Shown here piece after piece: positions 6,015 through 64,000 of a stretch of 64,000 bases of DNA. The notes beneath the pieces were generated by a model. It was given only the letters and a program-made list of their open reading frames with translations. It did not search any database and had not been told where the DNA came from. The DNA lies in NCBI GenBank assembly GCA_002069725.1, contig MWBW01000001.1, positions 56,583 through 120,582 of the forward strand. The letters are read 5' to 3'. Positions within the stretch are counted from its first letter, which is position 1, and each line of letters begins with the position of its first letter. The position numbers were made by a program, and so were the translations under genes. The DNA comes from Firmicutes bacterium ADurb.Bin248. GTDB lineage: Bacteria > Bacillota > Clostridia > Christensenellales > CAG-138.

Positions 6015-6944
6015 ATGTGGTATTGGTGGGCGCTGGGCGGCATACTCCTCGCCGCGCTGGCGACGGCGCTCGCGTCCTGGCGGCTCTCCTCACTCGTACT
6101 GCTCCCGAGGCGCGAGGGGTATGACGAGGCCGTCCGAAAGGAGATCGAGCGCGGCTACCTCGCGCCCGGCGAGCTCGAGACGCTGCGCCCCGAGCCGGGG
6201 GAGCTCAAGGCGTTCGACGGCACAACGCTTCGTTATTTCCGGCTTTGCTGCGGGAGGCCTACGGATAAAATCTGCGTGCTCGCGCACGGCTTCGGCAACC
6301 GCAAGGAGCACGTCGTGCGCTACGCCAGGCTCTACCTTGCGCGCGGGTACGACTGCCTGATCTACGACCAGCGCAATTGCGGCGATTCGGGCGGCGCATA
6401 CACCACGATGGGCCATCTCGAGCGGCGCGACCTGCGCGCGATGCTGCGTCTCGCGCGGGAGATGGACTCCCCGCAAAGAAAGGCCGTCGTCGGCGCGCAC
6501 GGGGAATCCCTCGGCGCGGCAACGGCGCTGCTGGCCGCGTGCACGGACGAAGCGCCGGATTTCGTCGTGGCGGACTGCCCGTTCGCGGATCTGAGCGAGC
6601 AGCTCGCCTACAACGTCACGAGCCTCAAGCGCCTGCCGGCGTATCCTTTCGCACCGCTCGCGTGTTTGTTTATGCGGCTTCGCGCGGGCTATCGGGCCTT
6701 CGACGTGTCGCCGTTGCGCGACATCGAGGTGGCGGACGGCCTGTCCGGCGTGCCCGTGCTTTTCATACACGGCGAGGCGGATACGCTGATCCCGTGCGCG
6801 GCGTCGAAGCGGCTGTATGAAGCCAAGCGCGGCATAAAGGGCCTGGCGCTTTTCCCCGGCGCGGAGCACGGCAGGAGCCTCGCCTCGGACCCGGAGCGCT
6901 ACGCGCGGGTGCTCAACGCGTTTCTCAATCAATGCGGCTATTAA
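6015..6944 (+). CDS. Alpha/beta hydrolase, membrane anchored
   Basis: N-terminal TM helix, HGFG oxyanion motif, GESLGA nucleophile elbow, and a C-terminal HG...D/H. Confidence 0.8.
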   Translation: MWYWWALGGILLAALATALASWRLSSLVLLPRREGYDEAVRKEIERGYLAPGELETLRPEPGELKAFDGTTLRYFRLCCGRPTDKICVLAHGFGNRKEHVVRYARLYLARGYDCLIYDQRNCGDSGGAYTTMGHLERRDLRAMLRLAREMDSPQRKAVVGAHGESLGAATALLAACTDEAPDFVVADCPFADLSEQLAYNVTSLKRLPAYPFAPLACLFMRLRAGYRAFDVSPLRDIEVADGLSGVPVLFIHGEADTLIPCAASKRLYEAKRGIKGLALFPGAEHGRSLASDPERYARVLNAFLNQCGY

Positions 6945-7773: not shown

Positions 7774-7957
7774 CAATTGACAATCATATTTGATTCGTGC
7801 GGTCTTCGCTTGAACGGCGAAGGCCGCTTTCCTTTCGCCGCAAGGTCGGATGGGATACGTCCGCCGTCCGCTTCCGCCGCGGCGGGTTTACGTCGCCGCA
7901 TAAGCGGGCTTCCGCTTTTAAAACGGAAGCCGCCCGAATTTTTACGATTGTCAATTG
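7774..7957. repeat. Family-A heptamer heads in inverted orientation flanking about 160 bp (MITE-like unit)
   Basis: CAATTGACAATC at 7774-7785 and GATTGTCAATTG at 7946-7957 are reverse complements. The interior has hairpin GCTTCCGCTTTTAAAACGGAAGC. Confidence 0.6.
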
Positions 7958-13340: not shown

Positions 13341-13478
13341 AAGAGCGCTTCGGGGGTGGTGCGATTCCACACCGGCGGTGATGCGGCGTATGCCGACGAG
13401 CCCGCGAACCGGCCATGCGGCCGGCCGAGCCGGTGAGATCCCGGAGCCGACGGTACAGTCCGGATGGGAGAAGCGGGC
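13341..13478 (+). promoter_or_regulatory. FMN riboswitch (RFN element)
   Basis: CTTCGGGGGTGGTGCGATTCCACACCGGCGGT...GAGCCCGCGA...GCCGACGGTACAGTCCGGATGGGAGAAG matches conserved RFN core blocks. Lies upstream of an ECF riboflavin S-component. Confidence 0.85.
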
Positions 13479-13487
13479 TTTTTGCTG

Positions 13488-17881: not shown

Positions 17882-17900
17882 GCGCCGGCCTCCTTTGGGG

Positions 17901-17950
17901 CAATTGAAAATTGACAATTGACAATCAGGGAACGCCGCCGTCGGGCGGGA
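17901..17950 (+). repeat. Family-A repeat (heptamer head + GC hairpin)
   Basis: CAATTGAAAATTGACAATTGACAATC + AGGGAACGCCGCCGTCGGGCGGGA. Followed by the 10-bp hairpin GCGGGGCGGC-TTGC-GCCGCCCCGC (17958-17981). Confidence 0.7.
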
Positions 17951-17995
17951 AATTTTTGCGGGGCGGCTTGCGCCGCCCCGCTGCGTTCGTCGTTC

Positions 17996-20101: not shown

Positions 20102-20176
20102 GCTTCCTCCGGTGGTTGGTTTCGGATGCGGGCGGATGATATCCGCCCCTACAGGGATTGTGGGTTCCCGTTCCCC

Positions 20177-20369
20177 GATTGTCAATGATCAATTGTCAAT
20201 TGTCAATTACCCCGTCCCCCGCCCGCAGGCGGGCGTTCCCTAGATTGTCAATTGTCAATTATCAATTATCCCGTCCCCGCCCGCAGGCGGACGTTCCCTT
20301 GATTGTCAATTGTCAATTATTCCGTCCCCGCTCGCAGGCGGACGTTCCCTAGATTGTCAATTGTCAATC
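20177..20369 (-). repeat. Family-A array: 3 full units plus a terminal head (periods 66, 58, 51 bp)
   Basis: GATTGTCAAT(T/G)...(heptamers) + CCGTCCCCGCCCGCAGGCGG(G/A)CGTTCCC, repeated at 20177, 20243 and 20301. The final head at 20352-20369 contains the stop of the upstream gene. Confidence 0.85.
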
Positions 20370-21741: not shown

Positions 21742-21866
21742 GATTGTCAATTGCCCCCACGGTTCGGGCCGATACGGCCCTCGGGCGACGCTCTCGGACA
21801 CTGGGCTGCGGCCGTCAGGATCGGCCCCTGCAGCCCGCCCGCGGCGGCGTTTTCCGATTGTCAATT
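21742..21866 (-). repeat. Two family-A fragments filling the oraE-reactivase spacer
   Basis: Head GATTGTCAATTG at 21742-21753. Hairpin CCCGCCCGCGGCGGCGTT + head GATTGTCAATTA at 21834-21866, overlapping the oraE stop. Confidence 0.6.
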
Positions 21867-27494: not shown

Positions 27495-27550
27495 CAATTG
27501 ACAATGGACAATGGACGATTGACAATCGGGAACGCCGCCTGCGGGCGGGG
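27495..27550 (+). repeat. Family-A repeat (variant head + GC hairpin)
   Basis: CAATTGACAATGGACAATGGACGATTGACAATC + GGGAACGCCGCCTGCGGGCGGGG. Confidence 0.75.
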
Positions 27551-27694
27551 GTTTCCCGTTCCTTTTATGCGCCGGGGACGGTTCCGCGTTTTTCCGGCGT
27601 CCCTGTTCCGGCGAAGCGGCATCTTCATCCTTTGCCCTGCTCATCCTCACGCGTGCAAAACCGTCCCCCGAGCGGCGAAGAACCTTTTGTTCCG

Positions 27695-27980
27695 CTCCGG
27701 GGACGGTTTTCGGTGAAAGAGGGTAGTGAAAGTCAAAGGCGGCCGCTGCCGCTTTTCGGAAGATGACCTGCCGGAAGCTGCCGAGAACCGTCGCCGACGC
27801 CCGAACAAACAGAGTTCCCCGCCCGCAGGCGGCGTTTTATGCTCCGGGGACGGCTCTCAGTAAAAGAGGGTGGTGAAAGTCAAAGGCGGTCGCTGCCGCT
27901 TTTCGGAAAATGACCTGCCGGAAACTGCCGAGAACCGGCGCTCGAAGGAAAAGAGTTCCCCGCCCGCAGGCGGCGTTTCT
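27695..27980 (+). repeat. Tandem duplication, 2 x about 147 bp, each unit ending in a family-A hairpin
   Basis: Units start CTCCGGGGACGG at 27695 and 27842. They share ...GTGAAAGTCAAAGGCGG(C/T)CGCTGCCGCTTTTCGGAA.ATGACCTGCCGGAA.CTGCCGAGAACCG...GTTCCCCGCCCGCAGGCGGCGTT. Confidence 0.8.
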
Positions 27981-28020
27981 TGTCCCCGATTGTCAATTGT
28001 CCATTGTCAATTGTCCATTG
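27955..28020 (-). repeat. Family-A repeat, inverted relative to 27495-27550
   Basis: GTTCCCCGCCCGCAGGCGGCGTT ... GATTGTCAATTGTCCATTGTCAATTGTCCATTG. The head contains the stop codon of the 28007..29374 gene. Confidence 0.75.
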
Positions 28021-31041: not shown

Positions 31042-32235
<1,194 letters not shown>

Positions 32236-32253
32236 TCGAAACTTATTGAAACC

Positions 32254-32441
32254 CCGGGGATTGTCAAGGGGCCGCGGCCCCTTGACTTTCATTCCGGCTT
32301 TGACGACACGCGCGTCAAAACGGATGAAAGCCGTAGGCGTTCGTACCTTTCACGCTTTGCCGCTCGGAAATACCGCAGTATTTTGGGCAAAGCGTGCAGT
32401 CTAAAAAAAAGCGGCTTTGTCGCTTTTTTGAAAGCGAAGCG
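32254..32441 (+). repeat. Family-B structured repeat, copy 1
   Basis: GGGGATTGTCAAGGGGCCGCGGCCCCTTGAC... Shares four helices with the copies at 48087 and 53238. Lies between the msmX-like stop and a terminator. Confidence 0.75.
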
Positions 32442-32447
32442 CAGCGC

Positions 32448-32476
32448 GGGGCGGATTCGTTCCGCCCCGTTTTTTT
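32448..32476 (+). terminator. Rho-independent terminator
   Basis: GGGGCGGA-TTCGT-TCCGCCCC followed by GTTTTTTT. Confidence 0.75.
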
Positions 32477-32494
32477 GAAAGGAAACGGCAGAAT

Positions 32495-34168: not shown

Positions 34169-34290
34169 GCAATTGACAATTGAAAATTGACAATTGACAA
34201 TCAGAGAACGCCGCCTGCGGGCGGGGCACGGAGCAATTGACAATTGAAAATTGACAATTGACAATCAGAGAACGCCGCCTGCGGGCGGGG
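34169..34290 (+). repeat. Family-A repeat, two tandem full units (period 64 bp)
   Basis: Twice: GCAATTGACAATTGAAAATTGACAATTGACAATCAGAGAACGCCGCCTGCGGGCGGGG. Starts 2 nt after the ychF stop. Confidence 0.9.
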
Positions 34291-34348
34291 TTTCGTGCGG
34301 GGACGGATTCCGAGGGCCGCATCCGCCCGCGCTTTGCCGGGAGAAAAC

Positions 34349-39811: not shown

Positions 39812-39987
39812 TTCACCTCCTTGAAAATAAAATCCTTTGCCTAAGACAAAGGATGAAAGGACGCCGTATGCTTGCGTCGCGCTTCACCTCGGCGGGATAT
39901 TGAGCCGCAAAGCGGCACCTGCTGTCTTCGGCCTGCGGTATTTGATTTTCCACGGGGCAGTGTATCACACCGCCCCGCGGTTGTCAA
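39812..39987 (-). promoter_or_regulatory. rplJL promoter plus L10-leader-like attenuator
   Basis: Minus strand: TTGACA (39987-39982), 17-nt spacer, TACACT (39964-39959). The roughly 130-nt leader ends in hairpin ATCCTTTG-N7-CAAAGGAT + TTTTATTTT (39854-39823) just before the RBS. Confidence 0.55.
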
Positions 39988-43726: not shown

Positions 43727-44344
43727 ATGCGGGAAATGCTTGACGAAAAGGGACGCACGCTCGCGCGATTTCTCGCCGAGTACGACATAGACAAGTACCG
43801 CCGCCCGTCCTGCGCGGTCGACATGGCGGTGTTCACCGACGAACAGGAACCCTCCGTGCTGCTCATCCGGCGGCGCAACCATCCCTACATCGGCCGCTGG
43901 GCGCTGCCGGGCGGCTTCGTCGGGTTCGACGAAACGCTCGAGCACGCCGCCGCGCGCGAGCTCGAGGAGGAAACGGGCGTAACGGACGCGGAGCTTCACC
44001 CGTTCGGCGTGTTCGACGCGGTGGACCGCGACCCGCGCACGCGCGTCATTTCGACCGGGTTTTACGCCGTGCTGCCGCGCGAGCGGCTTTGCTTTCGCGC
44101 GGGGGACGATGCCGCAGACGCCGCGCTTTTCTGCGTAACTTCCGTGCGCGAGCTCGCGCACAGCGCCGCGGCCTCGATCTTGGGCATAACGCTCGTCGGG
44201 CCGGCTCTCATAGAATGCCGCGCGCGCGTGCTCTACGGCGCGCGCGGCGAGAAGGTCGTTCCCCTGGCAAAGCCCGGCGAAGGGGGCCTCGCCGCCGACC
44301 ACGACTGCATTTTGCTGAGCGCGCTGCGCGCTTTAAACAATTGA
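43727..44344 (+). CDS. NUDIX hydrolase
   Basis: Nudix box GGFVGFDETLEHAAARELEEETGV. Extended -10 TGATATAAT upstream. The stop TGA lies inside a family-A head. Confidence 0.85.
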   Translation: MREMLDEKGRTLARFLAEYDIDKYRRPSCAVDMAVFTDEQEPSVLLIRRRNHPYIGRWALPGGFVGFDETLEHAAARELEEETGVTDAELHPFGVFDAVDRDPRTRVISTGFYAVLPRERLCFRAGDDAADAALFCVTSVRELAHSAAASILGITLVGPALIECRARVLYGARGEKVVPLAKPGEGGLAADHDCILLSALRALNN

Positions 44345-44532
44345 CAATTGAAAATTGACAATTGACAATCGGCTTACAATCGAACGGGCTTTCGCTTTAA
44401 GGTGCGCAAGCCCGTTTTCGTTGGGTTCCTCACATGTTTTTCGCGGTTTTCTGTCCGCGATGCAAATAACCGGCAGCCAAACCGATTCACTTGATTGTCA
44501 ATTGTCCATTGTCAATTGTCAATTGTCAATTA
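44338..44532. repeat. Inverted pair of family-A heads bracketing a convergent intergenic region
   Basis: CAATTGACAATTGAAAATTGACAATTGACAATC (44338-44370) and GATTGTCAATTGTCCATTGTCAATTGTCAATTGTCAATTA (44493-44532). The interior has hairpin AACGGGCTT...AAGCCCGTTTT. Confidence 0.8.
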
Positions 44533-44766
44533 TTCATCGATCACAAGGTACGGCCGCAGCCGCTCGAAGTCCGCCGGATTGCTCACGACCAGCTCCACGC
44601 AGGTGATGCGCTCGTCCTGGAACATCTGCGTCAGGGCGATGTACTGGCAGAGCGTGGACTTGAGGTTGAGCCTGTCCCCCTCCTGCGTGACGAGCTCCAC
44701 GCGGCCGGGGCAGGCGTTGACCGCCGCGAAGAAGAGCCGCGGCTCGGCGATATTGGTGATCTTCAT
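44530..44766 (-). CDS. Hypothetical protein (78 aa)
   Basis: ORF with good coding character, 4 nt downstream of the preceding gene. Confidence 0.5.
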   Translation of the reverse strand: MKITNIAEPRLFFAAVNACPGRVELVTQEGDRLNLKSTLCQYIALTQMFQDERITCVELVVSNPADFERLRPYLVIDE

Positions 44767-48031: not shown

Positions 48032-48086
48032 GCGGATCTCCTTTCGCAAAGCCGCGTCGGAGCAGCTTTTGCACGATAATGTCTTT

Positions 48087-48308
48087 GGGGATTGCCAAGG
48101 GGCCGCGCCCCTTTATTTTTATTCCGGCTTTGACGAACAAGGCGGATTGCCGCGCGGCGGCAAGAGGGGATTTCCTGGGGCACATGCGCGTCAAAACGGA
48201 TAAAAGCCGAAGGCTTTTGCACCCGTCGCGCTTTGGCGCCCGGAAACGCGCAGCGGTCCGGGCAAAGCGCGCAGCCTCAAAAAAGCGGCGGAGCCGGGTT
48301 TTTGAAAG
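48087..48308 (+). repeat. Family-B structured repeat, copy 2 (with a roughly 45-nt loop insertion)
   Basis: GGGGATTGCCAAGGGGCCGCGCCCC...TTTTATTCCGGCTTTGACG...CGTCAAAACGGATAAAAGCCG...CGCGCTTTGGCGCCCGG...CCGGGCAAAGCGCG... Confidence 0.75.
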
Positions 48309-48309
48309 A

Positions 48310-49671
48310 CTAGAGCAGTTTCTTCGTTTGCACGTATACGTCCCCGCTGCCCACGGTGACCACGAGGTCGCCCGGGCGCGCGTTTTTCTCAAGATAGCTG
48401 TTGATTTCCTCGAAGGTCGCAAGGTATACGGCCTCCGATCCTCCCGCCCGGATGCCGCGCACCATGTCGCGCGCATGGACGCTTCCGTCGTCCTTCTCGC
48501 GGCCGGGGTAGATGTCCGGCACGAGCACGGCGTCCGCGTCGGCAAAGCAGGTCACGTTTTCGAGGAAAAGCGTCTTGGCGCGCGTGTAGGAGTTGCACTG
48601 GAACACGCAGTAGAGCTTCCCGTGACGCATGCGCTTTGCCGCGGCGAGCGTCGCGGCGATCTCGGCGGGGTGGTGCCCGTAGTCATGGTAGATCCTCACG
48701 CCGTTCTTCTCGCCGTAGAATTCGAAGCGCCTGCGCGTGTTCTCGAACCGGGCGAGGGCGAAGGAGATCTGCTCCATCGGCGCGCCGAGCGCGAGGGCGA
48801 CCGCCGCGGCCGCCACCGCGTCTATGAGCGCGTGCCCTCCCGGCACCTTAAGCTTTATGCTGCCCAGTTTTTCCCCGCGGAACACGAGCTCGAACGAGGC
48901 GCAGCCGAACTCGTCGAACGCGACGTTTTCGGGGGTGTAATCCGCGTCCCTCATGCCGTAGGAAAGCTTGTTCCCCGCGTGCGCCGCGAGCAGCGCACGC
49001 ACGCGCGGGTCGTCCGCGCAGCCGAGGAAAAGCCCGTCCCCGGGCAAAAGCGCGACGAATCTTCGGAACGCGTCAACGATGTGCTCCATATCCCCGTAGT
49101 AGTCGAGGTGGTCGTTGTCGATGTTGTTGACGAGCGCGACGGTGGGCCGGAGCGTCAAAAAGCTTTCGACGTACTCGCACGCCTCGGTGATGAACAGCTC
49201 GTGCGAGCCCAGGCGCACGCCGCCCTTGAGGAAATCCACGAAGCCGCCGACGTGCACCGTCGCGTCGAGCGCGCCGGTTTCGCAGATCAGCGCGAGCATC
49301 GAGGTGACGGTGGTCTTGCCGTGGCAGCCCGCGATGCCCGCGACCTGCCCGTAGCCCTCCGTGAGCTGCCCGAGCGCCGCGCTGCGCTCGATTTCGGGTA
49401 TGCCCCGCGCCCGCGCCGCCGCGCGTTCGATGTTATCCGCCCTGACCGCCGCGGAGTAGATCACGAGATCCGCGTCGCCGAGGTTCCCCGCGTCGTGGCC
49501 GATGAAAACGGGTATTTTAAGCTCGGCCAGCCTCTGCGTGAACGGGGAAACATTCTGGTCCGAGCCCTGCACCGCGTATCCGCGCGCGTTAAGTATCTGC
49601 GCGAGGCCGCTCATCGAGCAGCCGCCGATGCCGATCAAATGGATGCGTTTGTGTTCGCTGATGTGCGCCAT
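48310..49671 (-). CDS. murC: UDP-N-acetylmuramate--L-alanine ligase
   Basis: GIGGCSMSGLA and GCHGKTT motifs; 453 aa. Confidence 0.95.
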   Translation of the reverse strand: MAHISEHKRIHLIGIGGCSMSGLAQILNARGYAVQGSDQNVSPFTQRLAELKIPVFIGHDAGNLGDADLVIYSAAVRADNIERAAARARGIPEIERSAALGQLTEGYGQVAGIAGCHGKTTVTSMLALICETGALDATVHVGGFVDFLKGGVRLGSHELFITEACEYVESFLTLRPTVALVNNIDNDHLDYYGDMEHIVDAFRRFVALLPGDGLFLGCADDPRVRALLAAHAGNKLSYGMRDADYTPENVAFDEFGCASFELVFRGEKLGSIKLKVPGGHALIDAVAAAAVALALGAPMEQISFALARFENTRRRFEFYGEKNGVRIYHDYGHHPAEIAATLAAAKRMRHGKLYCVFQCNSYTRAKTLFLENVTCFADADAVLVPDIYPGREKDDGSVHARDMVRGIRAGGSEAVYLATFEEINSYLEKNARPGDLVVTVGSGDVYVQTKKLL

Positions 49672-53220: not shown

Positions 53221-53237
53221 AATCAATCGTTTCAATC

Positions 53238-53436
53238 CGGGGATCGTCAAGGGGCCGCGGCCCCTTGACTTTTGATCCGGCTTCGGCGGCATGTGCGCCG
53301 AAACGGACGAAAGCCGGAGTTTTTTGGTTCCGCCGCGCTTTGGTCCGCGGCGGAAGCGCCGCCCGGAAACGCGCGGCATTTCAGGCAAGAGCCTGCAGGC
53401 TCAAAGAAACGGCGAAACCGCCGCTTTGAAGGCGAA
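53238..53436 (+). repeat. Family-B structured repeat, copy 3
   Basis: GGGGATCGTCAAGGGGCCGCGGCCCCTTGAC...GGCTTCGGCG...CGCCGAAACGG... with compensatory changes relative to copies 1 and 2. Confidence 0.75.
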
Positions 53437-53446
53437 GCCTGAATCG

Positions 53447-53475
53447 TTGACAAGCAAAAGAGAATACTTTATGAT
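53447..53475 (+). promoter_or_regulatory. Sigma-A-type promoter
   Basis: TTGACA, 17-nt spacer, TATGAT. Confidence 0.55.
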
Positions 53476-54623: not shown

Positions 54624-54731
54624 TCGGCAACCGTATTGCCGGTTATTCAGCTAATAACCAATGACCAATGGTGAATAACTATATGGAAAACAGGCGGCTT
54701 CCGTTTTAAGGGAACCGCCTGAATCTCATAT

Positions 54732-54764
54732 GATTATCAATTGTCAATTATCAATTATCAATTG
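54732..54764 (-). repeat. Family-A head (GATAAT-rich variant), no hairpin
   Basis: GATTATCAATTGTCAATTATCAATTATCAATTG, 6 nt from the stop of the 54771..56111 gene. Confidence 0.7.
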
Positions 54765-59446: not shown

Positions 59447-60154
59447 ATGCCCATACCCACGCCGCACATCAGCGCGAAAGCGGGCGATTTCGCCCAAACG
59501 GTTCTCATGCCGGGCGATCCGCTGCGCGCGAAGTTCATCGCCGAAACGTATTTCGAAAATCCCGTGCTCGTCAACAACGTGCGCGGCGTGCAGGGGCACA
59601 CGGGCTTTTATAAGGGCAAGCGCGTGTCCGTCATGGCAAGCGGCATGGGCATGCCCGCCATAGGCATCTATTCCTACGAACTGTACAACTTCTACGGCGT
59701 GGAGAACATCATCCGCGTCGGCTCGGCGGGGTCGATCAGCAAGGATCTGCCGCTTCGAAGCCTCGTCATCGCCATGAGCGCGTCGACCAACTCCAACTTC
59801 GCCGCGCAGTACGGCATGCCCGGCCTCATCGCGCCCACCGCGAGCTGGAATCTCGTCAAAAAGGCCGCGGAGCAGGCCGAGCGCATGGGCCTTGTCTACA
59901 AGGTCGGCAACATACTCTCGAGCGACACCTTCTACGACGACGCGGGCCGCACGCTCGAGTGGGGGCGCATGGGCGCGCTCGCCGTCGAGATGGAGGCCGC
60001 GGCGCTTTATTTGAGCGCCGCCCGCGCGGGCAAGCAGGCGCTTTGCGTGTGCACCATTTCCGACAGCCTCGTAACCGGCGAGGAATGCACGAGCGAGGAG
60101 AGGCAGAACACGTTCACCGCCATGATGGAGCTGGCCTTGGAGATCGCGGAGTGA
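59447..60154 (+). CDS. deoD: Purine nucleoside phosphorylase DeoD type
   Basis: MPIPTPHISAKAGDFAQTVLMPGDPLRAKFIAE... Confidence 0.95.
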   Translation: MPIPTPHISAKAGDFAQTVLMPGDPLRAKFIAETYFENPVLVNNVRGVQGHTGFYKGKRVSVMASGMGMPAIGIYSYELYNFYGVENIIRVGSAGSISKDLPLRSLVIAMSASTNSNFAAQYGMPGLIAPTASWNLVKKAAEQAERMGLVYKVGNILSSDTFYDDAGRTLEWGRMGALAVEMEAAALYLSAARAGKQALCVCTISDSLVTGEECTSEERQNTFTAMMELALEIAE

Positions 60155-60158
60155 TCGG

Positions 60159-60199
60159 TAATTGACAATTGATAATTGACAATTGACAATCGGGGAACG
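60159..60199 (+). repeat. Family-A head with a degenerate tail
   Basis: TAATTGACAATTGATAATTGACAATTGACAATC + GGGGAACG, 4 nt after the deoD stop. The family-C hairpin follows at 60245-60263. Confidence 0.7.
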
Positions 60200-60375
60200 A
60201 CAACGGCGTTGGGGACGATCCCGTTTCTCCGCGGTGTGAAAGGCGGGCGCATGATATCCGCCCCTATAACGAAATATGCGCGAGCAAACAGTACCGTCCC
60301 GTTTACCCCGTGTAAGGGCGGCCCTGTGCGGCCGCCCGATACGGGACGCATCAATACTCCCAAAGGAGAAATTCC

Positions 60376-62476: not shown

Positions 62477-63172
62477 ATGACGTTCAAGCATAGATCGGGC
62501 GGCTCCGCCCTGCCGCGCGCGGCGGCTCTGCTGCTCGCGCTCCTGTTCCTTTTCGCCGGATGCGCGGGAAGCGGCGGGGCCGGCGGCACGCAGCCGCCCG
62601 CGCCGAGCGAAAGCGGTATCGACAGCGGCACGCAACCGCCCGCGCCGGGGCAAGGCGGCGCTGACGGCGGCGCGCAGTCGCCCGCCCCAAGTGAAAGCGG
62701 CGCGGACGGCGAGGTATCCGACAAGGCGCTCTTTGGCGATTTCACAGCCAAGGACACCGAAGGCAACGCCGTCACCAACGACATCTTCGCGGATTACGAC
62801 GTAACCATGGTCAACATCTGGGCCACGTTCTGCGGCTATTGCGTGCGGGAGATGCCCGCGCTCGAAGAACTCGACGAGGAGTATCGCGACCGCGGCTTCC
62901 AGATCGTGGGCGTCGTCGTCGACGCGACGGACCAGAAGGGCAACGTGGACGACGCGCTGCTCGCCGAGGCGCTGGACATCATCGCGCAAACCGGCGCGGA
63001 CTACACGCACATCGTCCCCTCGGCCGAAATGTTCGGCAAGTTCCTCAAGGGCGTGCGCTATCTGCCCACGACCGTGTTTGTCAACAGCAGGGGCGAAGCC
63101 ATAGGTTCCGCCTACGAGGGCGCTATGGAAAAGGAGGACTGGGCGAAAATCATCGAGGAAAAGCTCGGATAA
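62477..63172 (+). CDS. TlpA/ResA-like thiol-disulfide oxidoreductase lipoprotein
   Basis: Lipobox LFAGC; thioredoxin-fold WATFCGYC active site. Confidence 0.85.
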   Translation: MTFKHRSGGSALPRAAALLLALLFLFAGCAGSGGAGGTQPPAPSESGIDSGTQPPAPGQGGADGGAQSPAPSESGADGEVSDKALFGDFTAKDTEGNAVTNDIFADYDVTMVNIWATFCGYCVREMPALEELDEEYRDRGFQIVGVVVDATDQKGNVDDALLAEALDIIAQTGADYTHIVPSAEMFGKFLKGVRYLPTTVFVNSRGEAIGSAYEGAMEKEDWAKIIEEKLG

Positions 63173-63420: not shown

Positions 63421-64000
63421 ATGAAGTTTTCGGAACAGCTCAAGGGATTCATTCGGCTGCGCAACCTCGTCGTTGCCGCGCTGCTCGCGATAATGCTGAC
63501 GCTGGGCGGGTGCGCGGGCAACGCCGCGATCATCGACGAACAGGCTGAGCCCGAGGCGCGCAGCGCGCAGCTTGCGCCCGAGACGACCGAGCCCGAGGCC
63601 GCCCCGACCGAGGCCGCCGCGACCGACGAACCCGCGCTCGACGCGAGCGCGACCGAGCCCGCGGTTTCCGGCGCAGACGAAAGCGCCGCCCCCGCGAACG
63701 AGAGCGCCGCGCCCGCGGCCAAGCCGGACGCGACCGCCACGGCGAAGCCTGCGGCGAGCGCCAAGTCGACCACGGCCCCGACCGCGAAGCCGACCGCGGC
63801 CCCGACGGCGAAGCCGACTACAGCTCCGACCGCGAAGCCAACTGCGGCTCCGACGGTGAAGCCGACCGCGGCCCCAACGGCGAAGCCGACTGCGAAGCCG
63901 ACCACGGCCCCGACGGCGAAGCCGACCGCGAAGCCCACGGCTGCGCCGACCGCCAAGCCGACCGCGAAGCCCACGGCCGCGCCGACCGCCAAGCCTGCCG
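63421..64000 (+). CDS. Lipoprotein with a (T/A)AKPT(A/T)AP tandem-repeat region, partial (runs off window)
   Basis: RBS GGAGG. MKFSEQLKGFIRLRNLVVAALLAIMLTLGGCAG has a lipobox. From about 63700 the sequence repeats PTAKPTAA. The minus-strand track ORF 63396..63992 is its shadow. Confidence 0.65.
   Translation, partial: MKFSEQLKGFIRLRNLVVAALLAIMLTLGGCAGNAAIIDEQAEPEARSAQLAPETTEPEAAPTEAAATDEPALDASATEPAVSGADESAAPANESAAPAAKPDATATAKPAASAKSTTAPTAKPTAAPTAKPTTAPTAKPTAAPTVKPTAAPTAKPTAKPTTAPTAKPTAKPTAAPTAKPTAKPTAAPTAKPA

Follow-up and report, generated by a model that had tools for sequence, protein, structure and literature searches.

Family B, a widespread family of small mobile repeats in Clostridia built from a fixed chain of co-varying hairpins

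Introduction

A non-coding repeat with helices that seem to be preserved by compensatory substitutions recurs within a 64-kb stretch of the Firmicutes bacterium ADurb.Bin248 genome (the whole stretch of DNA that was analysed, hereafter the window). An earlier note on this DNA named the repeat, family B, a candidate ncRNA or structured MITE, and the question raised by the locus is which of these it is, in what form its fold is selected and how its copies arise. We find that family B is a widespread, undescribed family of small mobile repeats made of a fixed chain of hairpins, and that its fold was probably selected in single-stranded DNA.

Copies in the window

A covariance-model scan of the whole window bore out the claim of three same-strand copies: family B is represented by exactly three non-coding copies of 185-250 nt, all on the plus strand. 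Model R1 matches copy 1 at 32246-32433 (167.7 bits, E = 1.3e-46), and the model matches copy 2 at 48077-48307 (134.3 bits) and copy 3 at 53229-53431 (120.2 bits); there is no fourth copy in the window, the remaining scores all being at or below 18 bits. The bounds proposed earlier were roughly right, the true extents being slightly wider. With the sequence taken into account, copy 1 spans 32246-32445, copy 2 48080-48309 and copy 3 53232-53441. The 24-nt palindrome said to open every copy is perfect in copies 1 and 3 and degenerate in copy 2 (GCCAAGGGGCCGCGCCCCTTTAT). Its 19-nt core occurs six times in the window, against 0.09 expected (both strands, up to three mismatches). The suspected kinship with family A appears to come down to one common 9-mer, GATTGTCAA, of which the window has 17 occurrences where 0.18 are expected, 16 of the 17 belonging to family A; family A itself was not found in the loci of other species that carry family B.

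Copy 1 lies, as had been proposed, in the 3' UTR of an msmX-like gene, between the gene for the MsmX/MalK-like ATPase (31042-32235) and a canonical intrinsic terminator of the host (32446-32477, plus strand), which is outside the element. It was found in eight of eight conspecific assemblies. We rejected the idea that copy 1 is more conserved than its flanks within the species: two variable sites in 259 nt are typical, at a diversity of ~0.6%, and the apparent extra conservation is an artefact of a family A indel.

A chain of co-varying hairpins

From 5' to 3', the element consists of an A-rich/GGGG lead, the hairpins P1, P2 and P3, a long P4 with an inner hairpin, P5 and sometimes P6. In copy 1, the lead (TTGAAACCCCGGGGATT) is followed by P1 (32263-32286), the 24-nt perfect palindrome GTCAAGGGGCC GC GGCCCCTTGAC; P1 bears a GGGATT tail. 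In P2 (32293-32324), UCCG..CGGA closes the helix UUUGACG/CGUCAAA around the loop ACACGCG, for which the family consensus is RCAUGYR, with a conserved CAUG. P3 (32325-32343) is a C(GNA)G triloop hairpin, UGAAAGCC-GUA-GGCGUUCG. P4 (32351-32397) pairs CACGCUUUGCC with GGCAAAGCGUG and contains an asymmetric internal loop and the inner hairpin P4b, and P5 (32401-32431) is an A-run/T-run hairpin, CUAAAAAAAAGCGGC..GUCGCUUUUUUGA, that resembles a two-way terminator. The lead and the GCGAAGC mini-hairpin P6 (32434-32442, GCGAAGCGC) carry the copy beyond its earlier bounds, to 32445. P6 is an optional module of this mini-hairpin type, present in roughly one third of copies as judged by eye. Further optional domains are located in the P2 loop and in P4. 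Copy 2, in which P1 and P5 are degenerate, has an extra hairpin domain of ~46-52 nt in the P2 loop (48136-48181, plus strand), making this loop 52 nt long versus 6 in the covariance model, and copy 3 has both a 16-nt hairpin in P4 and P6 (GGCGAAGCC).

All stems are held by compensatory changes across species. In the first sequence set, 93.1% of cells are paired versus 35-47% with slid partners, double changes occur in 36 of 59 pairs, and the double-change cells number 157 versus 40.8 in shuffles. In a second, independent set of P1-anchored metagenome copies, the paired fraction is 93.2% versus 34-49% and 52 of the 59 pairs show double changes. The covariation was thus reproduced with further copies. 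P2 pairs 58-74 and 60-72 have 12 double changes each, all nine pairs of P3 co-vary in the independent set, and all eight inner pairs of P5 show double changes.

Four of the five co-varying helices described in the earlier note are family-wide, namely P2 (TTTGACG/CGTCAAA changing to TTCGGCG/CGCCGAA), P4 (CACGCTTTGCC/GGCAAAGCGTG), the inner P4b and the terminal A-run/T-run P5. The fifth, TTTCAT/ATGAAA, is not conserved across the family; the change of G to A that yields ATAAAA co-varies instead with GGCTTTTG, which builds hairpin P3 (AUGAAAGCC-GNA-GGCUUUCGU). An exhaustive scan of column pairs for long-range or pseudoknot helices returned P1-P5 alone, and we rejected a helix that would close the element by pairing its 5' A-run with the 3' U-run, there being no co-variation when P5 changes. 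In most copies, P5 fits an intrinsic terminator, a GC-rich hairpin followed by a U-run, in both directions. In at least eight copies its A/U part co-varies into G-C pairs, and the U-run is therefore lost there. P1 is followed by only a weak U-run.

Mobility, target duplications and ends

In the presence/absence check at orthologous loci, copies 2 and 3 are missing from the syntenic sites of three related species (L093, L094 and L095), in which the junction downstream of murC is only 22-28 nt long. The insertion point of copy 2 is the stop codon of a MurC-like gene on the minus strand (48310-49671), where the copy lies between the arms of a target duplication of ~20 bp that is absent from the empty sites. 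Both arms are given on the plus strand; the left arm (48060-48079, GAGCAGCTTTTGCACGATAA) is decayed, and the right arm (48313-48336, GAGCAGTTTCTTCGTTTGCACGTA) holds, on its minus strand, the final codons of that gene. Copy 3 lies after the ypeB stop codon and before the TTGACA-17-TATGAT promoter of the next gene; it is flanked by the 7-bp duplication AATCGTT (53225-53231 and 53442-53448, plus strand), and the empty site of L094 reads CTGTGAATCGTTGACAAGC. Copies 2 and 3 are thus recent, lineage-specific insertions. Around at least eight other copies, it is a host terminator that is duplicated, over ~15-57 bp.

The element ends are ragged, the 3' end falling at the P5 U-run or a few nucleotides beyond. 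Degenerate, truncated and nested forms are common, and some copies are arranged tail-to-tail; 5'-truncated copies (for example L044:388-595), 3'-truncated and internally deleted copies are all present. Terminal inverted repeats of 10-12 bp (TGTCAAAAAA...TTTTTTGACA) mark a subset of copies (L010, L045, L060 and others) and are absent from the three window copies.

We found no transposase in ~1.3 Mb of flanking DNA and, by tblastn, no RT in the window or in the family B loci. All-against-all clustering of ORFs from ~60 and ~119 loci linked the element only to orthologous housekeeping genes, no ORF family recurs in the 2-20-kb pieces around copies, and Pfam assigned the window ORFs adjoining the repeats to housekeeping genes. 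A locus with two inverted P1 copies 5 kb apart (L126) was considered as a transposon and rejected, housekeeping genes being enclosed. Adenine mutagenesis of the DGR type is absent among the copies: A columns are 12-18% variable, T columns 14-23%, and transitions dominate.

Because of the empty syntenic sites, the flanking target duplications and the many copies per genome, we regard the copies as insertions. Together with the compensatory helices, these observations sustain the structured MITE half of the earlier proposal; the ncRNA half stays as a rival, an unlikely one in our judgement. Like MITEs, family B is a small non-coding element with presence/absence at orthologous sites, although its duplications, of 7, ~20 and ~15-57 bp, have no fixed family-specific length. 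Like REP/BIME, it comprises extragenic GC-rich palindromes with a conserved 5' tail, and forms mosaics. A PATE derived from IS200/IS605 was rejected, given the target duplications and the lack of a common target oligonucleotide, and so was a diversity-generating retroelement, there being neither an RT nor A-biased variation and only the hairpin module in common.

Distribution

Besides those in the window, we recovered ~90 copies, ~60 in genome loci and ~30 in metagenome loci. The carriers include at least 12 other Christensenellales-like species, and digester and gut metagenomes. At least 10 copies are present per genome, beside unrelated genes, the number in draft genomes being in the tens and not in the hundreds. 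Some syntenic copies are shared by species only 72-74% identical and differ by 11 compensatory pair changes. A divergent subfamily has other stem sequences and retains the architecture. Modules are common to family B, family B2 and a gut family G, and chimeric and inverted arrangements occur, the family G arrays holding modules in both orientations.

A match to an Rfam family, which had been named as a possible refutation, was found for none of the copies: the gathering-threshold scan of the window with Rfam 15 reported only malK-I, FMN and L10 leader, none on family B, scans of the three copies at E <= 10 gave chance-level matches far below gathering, and in eight related loci the element was unmatched. 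Likewise, plasmid and phage collections searched by blastn with a consensus-like copy gave no match, and the literature search on such elements in Christensenellaceae or Clostridia, or on terminator-duplicating repeats, yielded nothing specific.

Gene context and transcription

By crude ORF calls, on which a second caller did no better, a convergent gene has its stop codon directly at the 3' end of the element in ~24 of 28 clear cases, and in ~85% of the clear cases the element is antisense to the gene whose 3' end it adjoins. No terminator separates copies 1 and 3 from the upstream gene, to which both are sense, and many copies have a host terminator in front of them. No conserved promoter was seen upstream, where the base-frequency profile shows the A-run and CC/GGGG of the lead and no -35/-10, and scans of copies 1 and 3 with promoter consensus sequences were negative; an AT-rich stretch lies 6-10 nt upstream of the GGGG start.

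DNA-type hairpins and phage counterparts

On the element strand, C(GNA)G accounts for 93 of 178 perfect triloop hairpins versus five C(TNC)G, with a background of 2.7%, and GNRA and UNCG tetraloops are nearly absent from family B loops. Three to four flanking host terminators, inspected by eye, have UUCG, ACAA, UAAA and UUACU tetra- or pentaloops and no GNA triloops. Hairpins of the d(GCGNAGC) type are far more stable than their RNA counterpart and are found at ssDNA priming sites, GCGAAAGC-type hairpins being present at those of G4 and ssiA (PMC13037366). Judged from sequence, the C(GNA)G triloops on one strand are a signature of DNA mini-hairpins. GNA triloops are also possible in RNA. G-U pairs number 138 versus 63 A-C pairs, or ~80 versus 63 (a ratio of ~1.3) once two near-invariant positions are set aside; such near-equality would fit DNA or decay, without proving DNA. 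Nearby copies are mostly on the same strand (all three in the window, and 7 of 11 neighbouring pairs on other contigs), in a window with weak GC skew and mixed gene orientation.

P1 also occurs in phages. It is present in three Microviridae non-coding regions, in one of them immediately after the major capsid gene, beside further GNA/GNNA hairpins of these ssDNA gut phages, and one of the regions has P3-, P4- and P5-like hairpins as well. In phages of the phiX174/G4 type, the complementary-strand origins are located in the intergenic region after the capsid gene. In addition, phage DGRs from two RT clades, 30-32% identical to each other, have P1 and its 5' lead directly behind the VR; the DGR sequence at this position is near-identical to the family B lead and P1 (CAAAAACC..GGGGATTGTCAAGGGG-CGCA-CCCCTTGAC), and P2-P5 have no counterpart in the DGR loci. 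DGR targets require an IMH plus a strand-specific hairpin, and the target-primed reactions of DGRs as well as of group IIC introns make use of hairpins that resemble terminators (PMC3240598).

Discussion

We consider family B to be, with a probability of about 0.55, a non-autonomous, REP/BIME- or MITE-like structured mobile repeat of Clostridia that was selected as folded ssDNA. We infer that the selected state is one folded DNA strand, the plus strand of the window, because C(GNA)G loops are very stable in DNA and not in RNA and appear on that strand only, because P1 is the hairpin that phage DGRs place behind the VR, where cDNA integration needs a strand-specific hairpin, and because the same hairpin is found in the non-coding region of ssDNA gut phages. 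A single-stranded copy would be joined to the chromosome at hairpin-rich gene ends, in a target-primed or replication-coupled reaction, with two offset breaks around the target hairpin, which would explain the variable duplications and imprecise ends. The inserted element would be tolerated, the host terminator being duplicated and not destroyed; P1 and P5 themselves look like transcription stops, and this tolerated, stop-like character may explain the persistence of some copies at one locus in deeply diverged species.

Several observations count against selection as ssDNA. The 11 compensatory changes between syntenic copies also fit an RNA or host function selected in place, most copies have in P5 a textbook intrinsic terminator, which makes the 3' end of the element a plausible transcript end, and there remain the bias toward convergent-gene stop codons, the failure to find a mobilising enzyme and the terminal inverted repeats of a subset. 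We think it rather improbable that family B and its relatives are, in addition, a hitherto unrecognised kind of bacterial mobile element, SINE-like or hairpin-homing, that spreads via folded ssDNA or cDNA, is inserted by target-primed synthesis at hairpins and uses, in P1 and its lead, the signal by which DGRs integrate cDNA and which ssDNA phages carry in their non-coding DNA; P1 would then be portable between systems and recognised by some host factor.

If family B were a structured ncRNA family, its plus strand would be transcribed within a 3' UTR or from a left-flank promoter, fold into P1-P5 and end at P5, acting in cis (as stabiliser, terminator or insulator of convergent genes) or in trans, and occasional duplication would multiply the copies. 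The strong covariation of every helix, the optional domains of variable size, as in many functional RNAs, the intrinsic-terminator hairpin and U-run of P5, copies 1 and 3 being sense to an upstream gene with no intervening terminator, the AT-rich stretch 6-10 nt before the GGGG start and the persistence of some syntenic copies across deep divergence with 11 compensatory changes all agree with an RNA. Yet no -35/-10 is conserved at a constant spacing, many copies would be shielded from upstream transcription by the host terminator before them, and ~85% of clear cases are antisense to the adjoining gene 3' end. The fold, moreover, is a plain hairpin chain without junctions, pseudoknots or long-range helices, its triloops are GNA and not GNRA or UNCG, the G-U:A-C ratio is ~1.3, Rfam offers no match, and copies 2 and 3 in the window were inserted recently; on balance, we find an ncRNA family unlikely, if far from implausible. 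Close to negligible, in our estimate, is a riboswitch- or attenuator-like RNA in which CGGCUUU pairs either in P2 or with AAAGCCG and so controls a downstream terminator, the mutually exclusive folds of the earlier note. CGGCUU/AAGCCG can indeed pair, in 77.8% of cells and with 10 double-change cells versus 4.2 in shuffles, and P5 is terminator-like; but this helix is weaker than the competing P2 and P3, which pair at 89-91%, its two outer pairs do not form in 10-14 of 28 sequences, its invariance is confined to the set ascertained with that same pattern, and its companion TTTCAT/ATGAAA is not conserved. Most copies have no same-orientation downstream gene, and the 10 or more copies per genome are insertions beside unrelated genes. 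The riboswitch/transcription attenuator class was rejected on the mostly convergent downstream gene, the weak alternative helix and the unrelated neighbours.

The integration footprint would also suit a SINE-like retroposon, in which a P5-terminated plus-strand RNA is reverse-transcribed by an RT acting in trans (for example a hairpin-recognising one of DGR or group II type), cDNA synthesis being primed on a nicked target next to a terminator hairpin, and the variable position of the second-strand break giving variable duplications. Consistent with this are the duplications of variable length that enclose hairpins, the raggedness of both ends, of which the 3' one lies near the P5 U-run, 5'-truncated copies such as L044:388-595, the equivalence of lead plus P1 to the IMH-like region and hairpin of DGR targets, and the use of terminator-like hairpins by both DGRs and group IIC introns (PMC3240598). 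We nevertheless hold a retroposon to be improbable: an RT is absent from the window and all family B loci, the mutation spectrum is not adenine-specific, 3'-truncated and internally deleted copies occur too, the hairpin of DGRs is part of the target and not of the mobile RNA, no promoter would travel along, and it is the RNA-sense strand, not the cDNA, that has the GNA loops. Very unlikely, finally, are domesticated host ssDNA signals, either priming or primosome-assembly sites or barriers to forks or transcription at gene ends, which phages would have copied. The P1 and GNA hairpins of Microviridae non-coding DNA, once immediately after the major capsid gene, the GCGAAAGC-type hairpins at the G4 and ssiA priming sites and the shared strand of most nearby copies (3/3; 7/11 pairs) point that way, whereas copies 2 and 3 are lineage-specific and relatives do without them, and degenerate, truncated and nested copies are common.

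Among known repeats, REP/BIME elements, which are mobilised by RAYT Y1 transposases, share with family B an extragenic position, mostly next to gene 3' ends, a make-up of GC-rich hairpin modules that bear a conserved 5' tail, the lack of coding capacity, mosaics comparable with the subfamilies, chimeric copies and family G arrays, and strand-specific hairpins that imply a single-strand state. Family B differs in that five to six different hairpins in fixed order move as a ~190-nt unit, no RAYT is present in the 2-20-kb pieces, draft genomes hold tens and not hundreds of copies, and target duplications are left, which is not known of REPs. MITEs with folded transcripts (for example Correia, ERIC, BOX/RUP and bcr1) are likewise small, non-coding, multi-copy and intergenic, show insertion polymorphism between relatives and target duplications, and may be co-transcribed with neighbours, and some family B copies have short terminal inverted repeats as well. 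In contrast to MITEs, the duplications of family B range from 7 to 57 bp, often spanning a whole terminator, its ends are ragged, its several local hairpins each co-vary in place of one long TIR-derived hairpin, and no parent IS was found.

The GC-rich 10-bp stem of P1, its small conserved loop and its place at a gene 3' end recall the DGR target signal (PMC3240598), but family B has no VR/TR pair, nearby RT or Avd, or adenine mutagenesis. With the G4 ori-c, ssiA and rolling-circle sso, it shares a chain of hairpins over 100-300 nt, mini-hairpins of the GCGAAGC or GCGAAAGC type, the P1-like hairpins of Microviridae non-coding regions and, putatively, function on one strand; unlike these origins, it is chromosomal, multi-copy and mobile, and a priming role is only a candidate. 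Group IIC introns, too, prefer terminator hairpins at gene ends, whereby gene damage is avoided, whereas family B, at ~190 nt, lacks ribozyme domains and an ORF, and its target is duplicated and not merely flanked.

Family B is thus a widespread structured repeat of digester, gut and other anaerobic Clostridia, copies of which annotators and ncRNA hunters will keep meeting. Its variable, terminator-enclosing duplications and ragged ends point to an insertion mechanism unlike that of classical transposases. Insertion within operons, as for copy 2, or between a gene and the next promoter, as for copy 3, has probably reshaped transcription units. Furthermore, the lead hairpin links three systems that all handle ssDNA, namely the integration of DGR cDNA, the non-coding regions of Microviridae and the chromosomal repeats, and so suggests that they share a host factor. 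Common to many elements within one bacterial group, it may provide a handle on the host function by which the DGR target hairpin is recognised, a question of long standing.

Copies and distribution of family B

Family B is a real and widespread non-coding repeat. A covariance model built from copies of other genomes recovered the three same-strand copies described in the earlier note as one element, all on the + strand, at 32246-32433 (copy 1, 167.7 bits), 48077-48307 (copy 2, 134.3 bits) and 53229-53431 (copy 3, 120.2 bits), with no fourth match above 18 bits in the whole window. The 24-nt palindrome said to open all copies is perfect in copies 1 and 3 and degenerate in copy 2; its core occurs six times in the window, both strands counted, against 0.09 expected. 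The Rfam search suggested in the same note gave no match to family B at gathering score or at E<=10.

One pattern scan of species-representative genomes yielded 84 loci, of which ~55 are true family B copies, spread over 12 uncultured Christensenellales-like or Clostridia species, including Christensenella sp. UBA7707, several 'Bacillota OH_' bins and Ca. Pelethousia, with up to ~15 copies per draft assembly. The family B covariance model detected extra copies missed by the pattern within the same loci, including a divergent subfamily, and a second scan anchored on the first hairpin (P1) only added ~30 copies from digester and gut metagenomes. The window matches GCA_022706965.1 (contig JAKJBN010000003.1) at 100% identity, and copy 1 was found in 8/8 conspecific assemblies. 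The only SNPs in copy 1 among strains are two in one conspecific strain (L088), which change the P1 loop from CGCG to CGCA (equivalent of 32276) and the P2 loop from ACACGCG to ACATGCG (equivalent of 32309), both toward the family consensus. Seemingly stronger conservation of copy 1 within the species was rejected as an alignment artefact; within-species diversity (~0.6%) is too low to judge constraint on family B.

Structure and covariation

Family B is a plain chain of hairpins in constant order: a lead, (TGTC)AAAAAACC-N-GGGGATT in the consensus; P1, GUCAAGGGGC/GCCCCUUGAC, whose loop is in most cases CGCA or CGCG; P2, UCCG/CGGA closing UUCGGCG/CGCCGAA, with the loop RCAUGYR; P3, AUGAAAGCC-GNA-GGCUUUCGU; P4, CACGCUUUGCC/GGCAAAGCGUG, interrupted by an asymmetric internal loop and enclosing another hairpin, P4b; P5, CUCAAAAAAGUGGC..GCCACUUUUUUGA; and, in about one third of copies as judged by eye, P6, a GCGAAGC-type mini-hairpin. 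An exhaustive column-pair scan of the alignment revealed no long-range helices. Additional hairpin domains are located in the P2 loop (~50 nt extra in copy 2) and in P4 (16 nt extra in copy 3), with bigger ones in L006, L037, L066 and L070, and the divergent subfamily retains an identical chain with different P1-P4 stem sequences.

The structural constraint is strong. In an alignment of 45 copies, standard base pairs make up 93.1% of pair cells, compared to 35-47% with slid partners, and 36/59 pairs changed on both sides (157 cells vs 40.8 in shuffles). Among 33 distinct metagenome copies, which were ascertained via P1 alone and aligned by fitting to the model and are thus biased toward structure, 93.2% of cells are paired (34-49% slid) and 52/59 pairs changed on both sides, including 9/9 P3 pairs.

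These data bear out the co-varying helices P2, P4, P4b and P5 proposed in the earlier note. The TTTCAT/ATGAAA helix, also proposed there, is not kept across the family: the A of ATAAAA in copy 2 pairs with U in GGCUUUUG and therefore belongs to P3, and L031 and L062 show the equivalent P3 compensation with the 5' side unchanged. Two mutually exclusive folds had been envisaged, with CGGCUU/AAGCCG as the alternative pairing, which was invariant in the first copy set because the search pattern required it. In the P1-anchored set, 77.8% of its cells are paired, with few double changes, and the two outer pairs break in 10-14 of 28 sequences. With these pairs often broken and TTTCAT/ATGAAA not conserved, the two-state switch is poorly supported, and we regard it as improbable in the extreme.

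Insertion, rearrangement and gene context

Family B is mobile, with target duplications that vary in length. Syntenic regions were reached through homologues of YpeB, the protein encoded beside copy 3, and the presence/absence comparison at orthologous loci recommended earlier showed that copies 2 and 3 are absent from three related species (L093, GCA_040767925.1; L094; L095/L096). At the copy 2 site, the distance from the MurC-like gene to the next gene is 22-28 nt in the relatives vs ~280 nt (260 nt by the ORF list) in the window, where the gap contains the copy; for copy 3, ypeB and the next gene are separated by 90-161 nt vs 318 nt, again containing the copy. AATCGTT lies on either side of copy 3 (53232-53441), directly upstream of the next gene's TTGACA-17-TATGAT promoter, and the empty site in L094 is CTGTGAATCGTTGACAAGC; the pair is therefore a 7-bp target duplication. 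Copy 2 (48080-48309) begins exactly at the murC stop codon and has a decayed repeat of the last murC codons on its opposite side, GAGCAG..TTGCACG (48060-48079 vs 48313-48336), a target duplication of ~20 bp.

At least eight insertions in other genomes lie between two copies of an entire host terminator hairpin, the duplications spanning 57 nt in L010, where the end of a convergent gene is included, ~22-28 nt each in L045, L057, L007 and L028, and ~15-27 nt in L022, L060 and L067. The start and end points of these inserts vary slightly, and a 10-12-bp inverted repeat, TGTCAAAAAA...TTTTTTGACA, is present in only part of the inserted segments. There are also truncated copies (P1-P3 only in L094; P2'-P5 only in L044:388), internally deleted copies (L179, L181, L215), chimeric or nested copies (L026, L031), and two tail-to-tail copies sharing a single P5 (L078). 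No recurrent protein family was found among the ORFs flanking the collected loci, and the window ORFs adjoining the repeats are housekeeping genes.

Two loci carry a copy in species whose flanking genes share just 72-74% DNA identity, one beside a 399-aa convergent gene (L025, L054, L003) and the other beside a 749-908-aa ORF with a C-terminal CPCGSGKKYKNCCG motif, probably SecA by eye (L012, L068, L044, L056). The syntenic copies at each are 11 compensatory pair changes apart, implying that the copy either was kept in place by selection or was exchanged for one of another subfamily. Copy 1 is located, as claimed, 3' of the MsmX/MalK-like ATPase gene (31042-32235), with a canonical terminator and then a YbaK-like gene downstream. 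Directly upstream of the ATPase gene is a malK-I RNA (RF03069; 30868-31047, + strand, 131.6 bits), so that this gene has a known candidate cis-regulatory leader. Copy 2, which has the most degenerate P1 and P5 of the three, is antisense within what is a compact pair of genes in relatives. In ~24 of 28 clear cases, the element points with its 3' end at the 3' end of a convergent ORF, often 0-22 nt away, and on its 5' side there is either the end or the start of a gene; this 3'-end bias looks real, with counts based on crude calls of ORFs >=200 aa that a second gene caller did not improve.

Family A and other window features

Family A consists of a heptad array, CAATTGACAATTGAAAATTGACAATTGACAATC, beside the hairpin GCCGCC-TGCG-GGCGG, and is found at 7777-7954, 17894-17972, 20176-20360, 21742-21864, 27495-27527, 27987-28019, 34170-34312, 44324-44545, 54731-54763 and 60145-60237, often as inverted pairs facing inward, and lies between genes of an ornithine-fermentation operon. 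The likeness of the family B 5' end to family A, suggested previously, extends to the common 9-mer GATTGTCAA (17 occurrences in the window vs 0.18 expected) and nothing beyond it; family A was not found in the loci of other family B species. A 64-nt family A unit is present in two or three tandem copies depending on the conspecific assembly, a copy-number polymorphism (window 34170-34312; L085-L092 around 6145-6290). Between inverted family A ends are two 101-nt direct repeats (27694-27794 and 27841-27941, 91% identical). The window also contains an FMN riboswitch (13342-13479, + strand, 86.5 bits) and a ribosomal protein L10 leader (39817-39949, - strand, 56.7 bits). Near its end, at 63683-63994 and 62569-62694, there are 12 copies of a tandem 12/24-nt repeat and three repeats of 42 nt, which probably lie within repetitive coding sequence.

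The P1 hairpin in other systems

The majority of metagenome P1 matches are not family B. Many belong to family G, a very abundant human-gut repeat without an Rfam match (L126 1400-2450 and ~60 other human-gut metagenome loci, such as L097, L101 and L102), in which one P1 hairpin is embedded in long BIME-like mosaics of hairpin modules (GCC-GNNA-GGC, GGTTCCTTTTG..CAAAAGGAAC and others) that occur in both orientations. Further matches, from soil and termite metagenomes, lie beside the starts of genes; in four soil loci (L103, L114, L120, L142), a repeat, GCGTAYGGGCGATG, is followed by P1 immediately upstream of unrelated genes, and in L120 a LarC-like gene apparently uses the TTG in the P1 3' arm as its start codon.

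The lead module is common to family B, targets of diversity-generating retroelements (DGRs) and ssDNA phages. In IMG/VR and metagenome sequences, P1 with a CGCA-type loop, as in family B, lies directly 3' of the variable repeat of phage DGRs (L218 2862-2894, L219, L220/L223, L221, L222, L169, L138), and the DGR lead, CTCAAAACCCCCTGAGGGGGATTGTCAAGGGGG, resembles the family B lead, TGTCAAAAAACC-N-GGGGATTGTCAAGGGG. The target gene encodes a BppU_N domain, and downstream of it are the template repeat and a reverse transcriptase (RT; RVT_1) belonging to one of two clades with mutual identity of only 30-32%; L220 additionally contains an RT-18 RNA (RF03021, 4494-4572). Integration of DGR cDNA is directed by the IMH signal together with a GC-rich hairpin whose small loop is sensitive to orientation (PMC3240598).

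P1 is also present in non-coding regions of three Microviridae: L216 (MK496756.1, 1627-1657), immediately 3' of the major capsid gene and followed by GTAAGGC-GAA-GCCTTAC; L217 (MT135357.1); and L224 (3005-3300), a 4955-nt contig from IMG/VR that encodes Phage_F and Rep, where P1 has a CAAAAACC lead and precedes C(GAA)G, C(GATA)G and long hairpins, to which the family B model aligns P3, P4 and P5 (E 8.7e-5). In phiX174/G4-type phages, the complementary-strand origin is immediately after the major capsid gene.

Selected form and possible mode of insertion

Among perfect hairpins with a 3-nt loop and a stem of at least 4 bp, C(GNA)G accounts for 93/178 on the element strand, with all four bases at N, and the reverse-complement type C(TNC)G for only 5/178; the C(GNA)G share in surrounding DNA is 2.7%. 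One strand is therefore the selected folded form. Loops of the C(GNA)G and C(GNNA)G types are those found in d(GCGNAGC) and d(GCGNNAGC), DNA mini-hairpins of exceptional stability whose RNA counterparts are far less stable and which occur where priming on ssDNA takes place in phage G4 and at ssiA (PMC13037366). GNRA and UNCG tetraloops are nearly missing from family B, G-U pairs are only modestly more numerous than A-C, and the three or four flanking host terminators inspected by eye have tetra- or pentaloops (e.g. UUCG, ACAA, UAAA, UUACU). We consider this moderate evidence for a fold at the DNA level.

Given these loops, a transcribed structured RNA acting in cis or in trans, to which the compensatory changes and the location of copy 1 3' of a gene would also be congenial, appears unlikely. 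A SINE-like retroposon would account for mobility and variable target duplications, and the resemblance to DGR targets brings reverse transcription to mind; no RT was found near family B copies in the loci searched, nor adenine-specific mutation among the copies, and we consider this origin quite improbable. Domestication of a single-strand signal by the host is highly improbable, given copies that are absent from relatives or truncated.

We favor, with a probability of about 0.55, a repeat selected as folded single-stranded DNA, which would insert by a target-primed or replication-coupled reaction at gene ends rich in hairpins. Family B differs from MITEs in its variable duplications, ragged ends and the lack of a detected parent IS, from REP/BIME in moving as a 190-nt unit and duplicating its target, from IS200/IS605 derivatives in having target duplications, and from DGRs in having no VR/TR or RT; because it fits none of these well, we class it among structured extragenic repeats. 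Such insertions may be tolerated because host terminators are duplicated rather than destroyed and because terminator-like hairpins would lie at both ends of the element.
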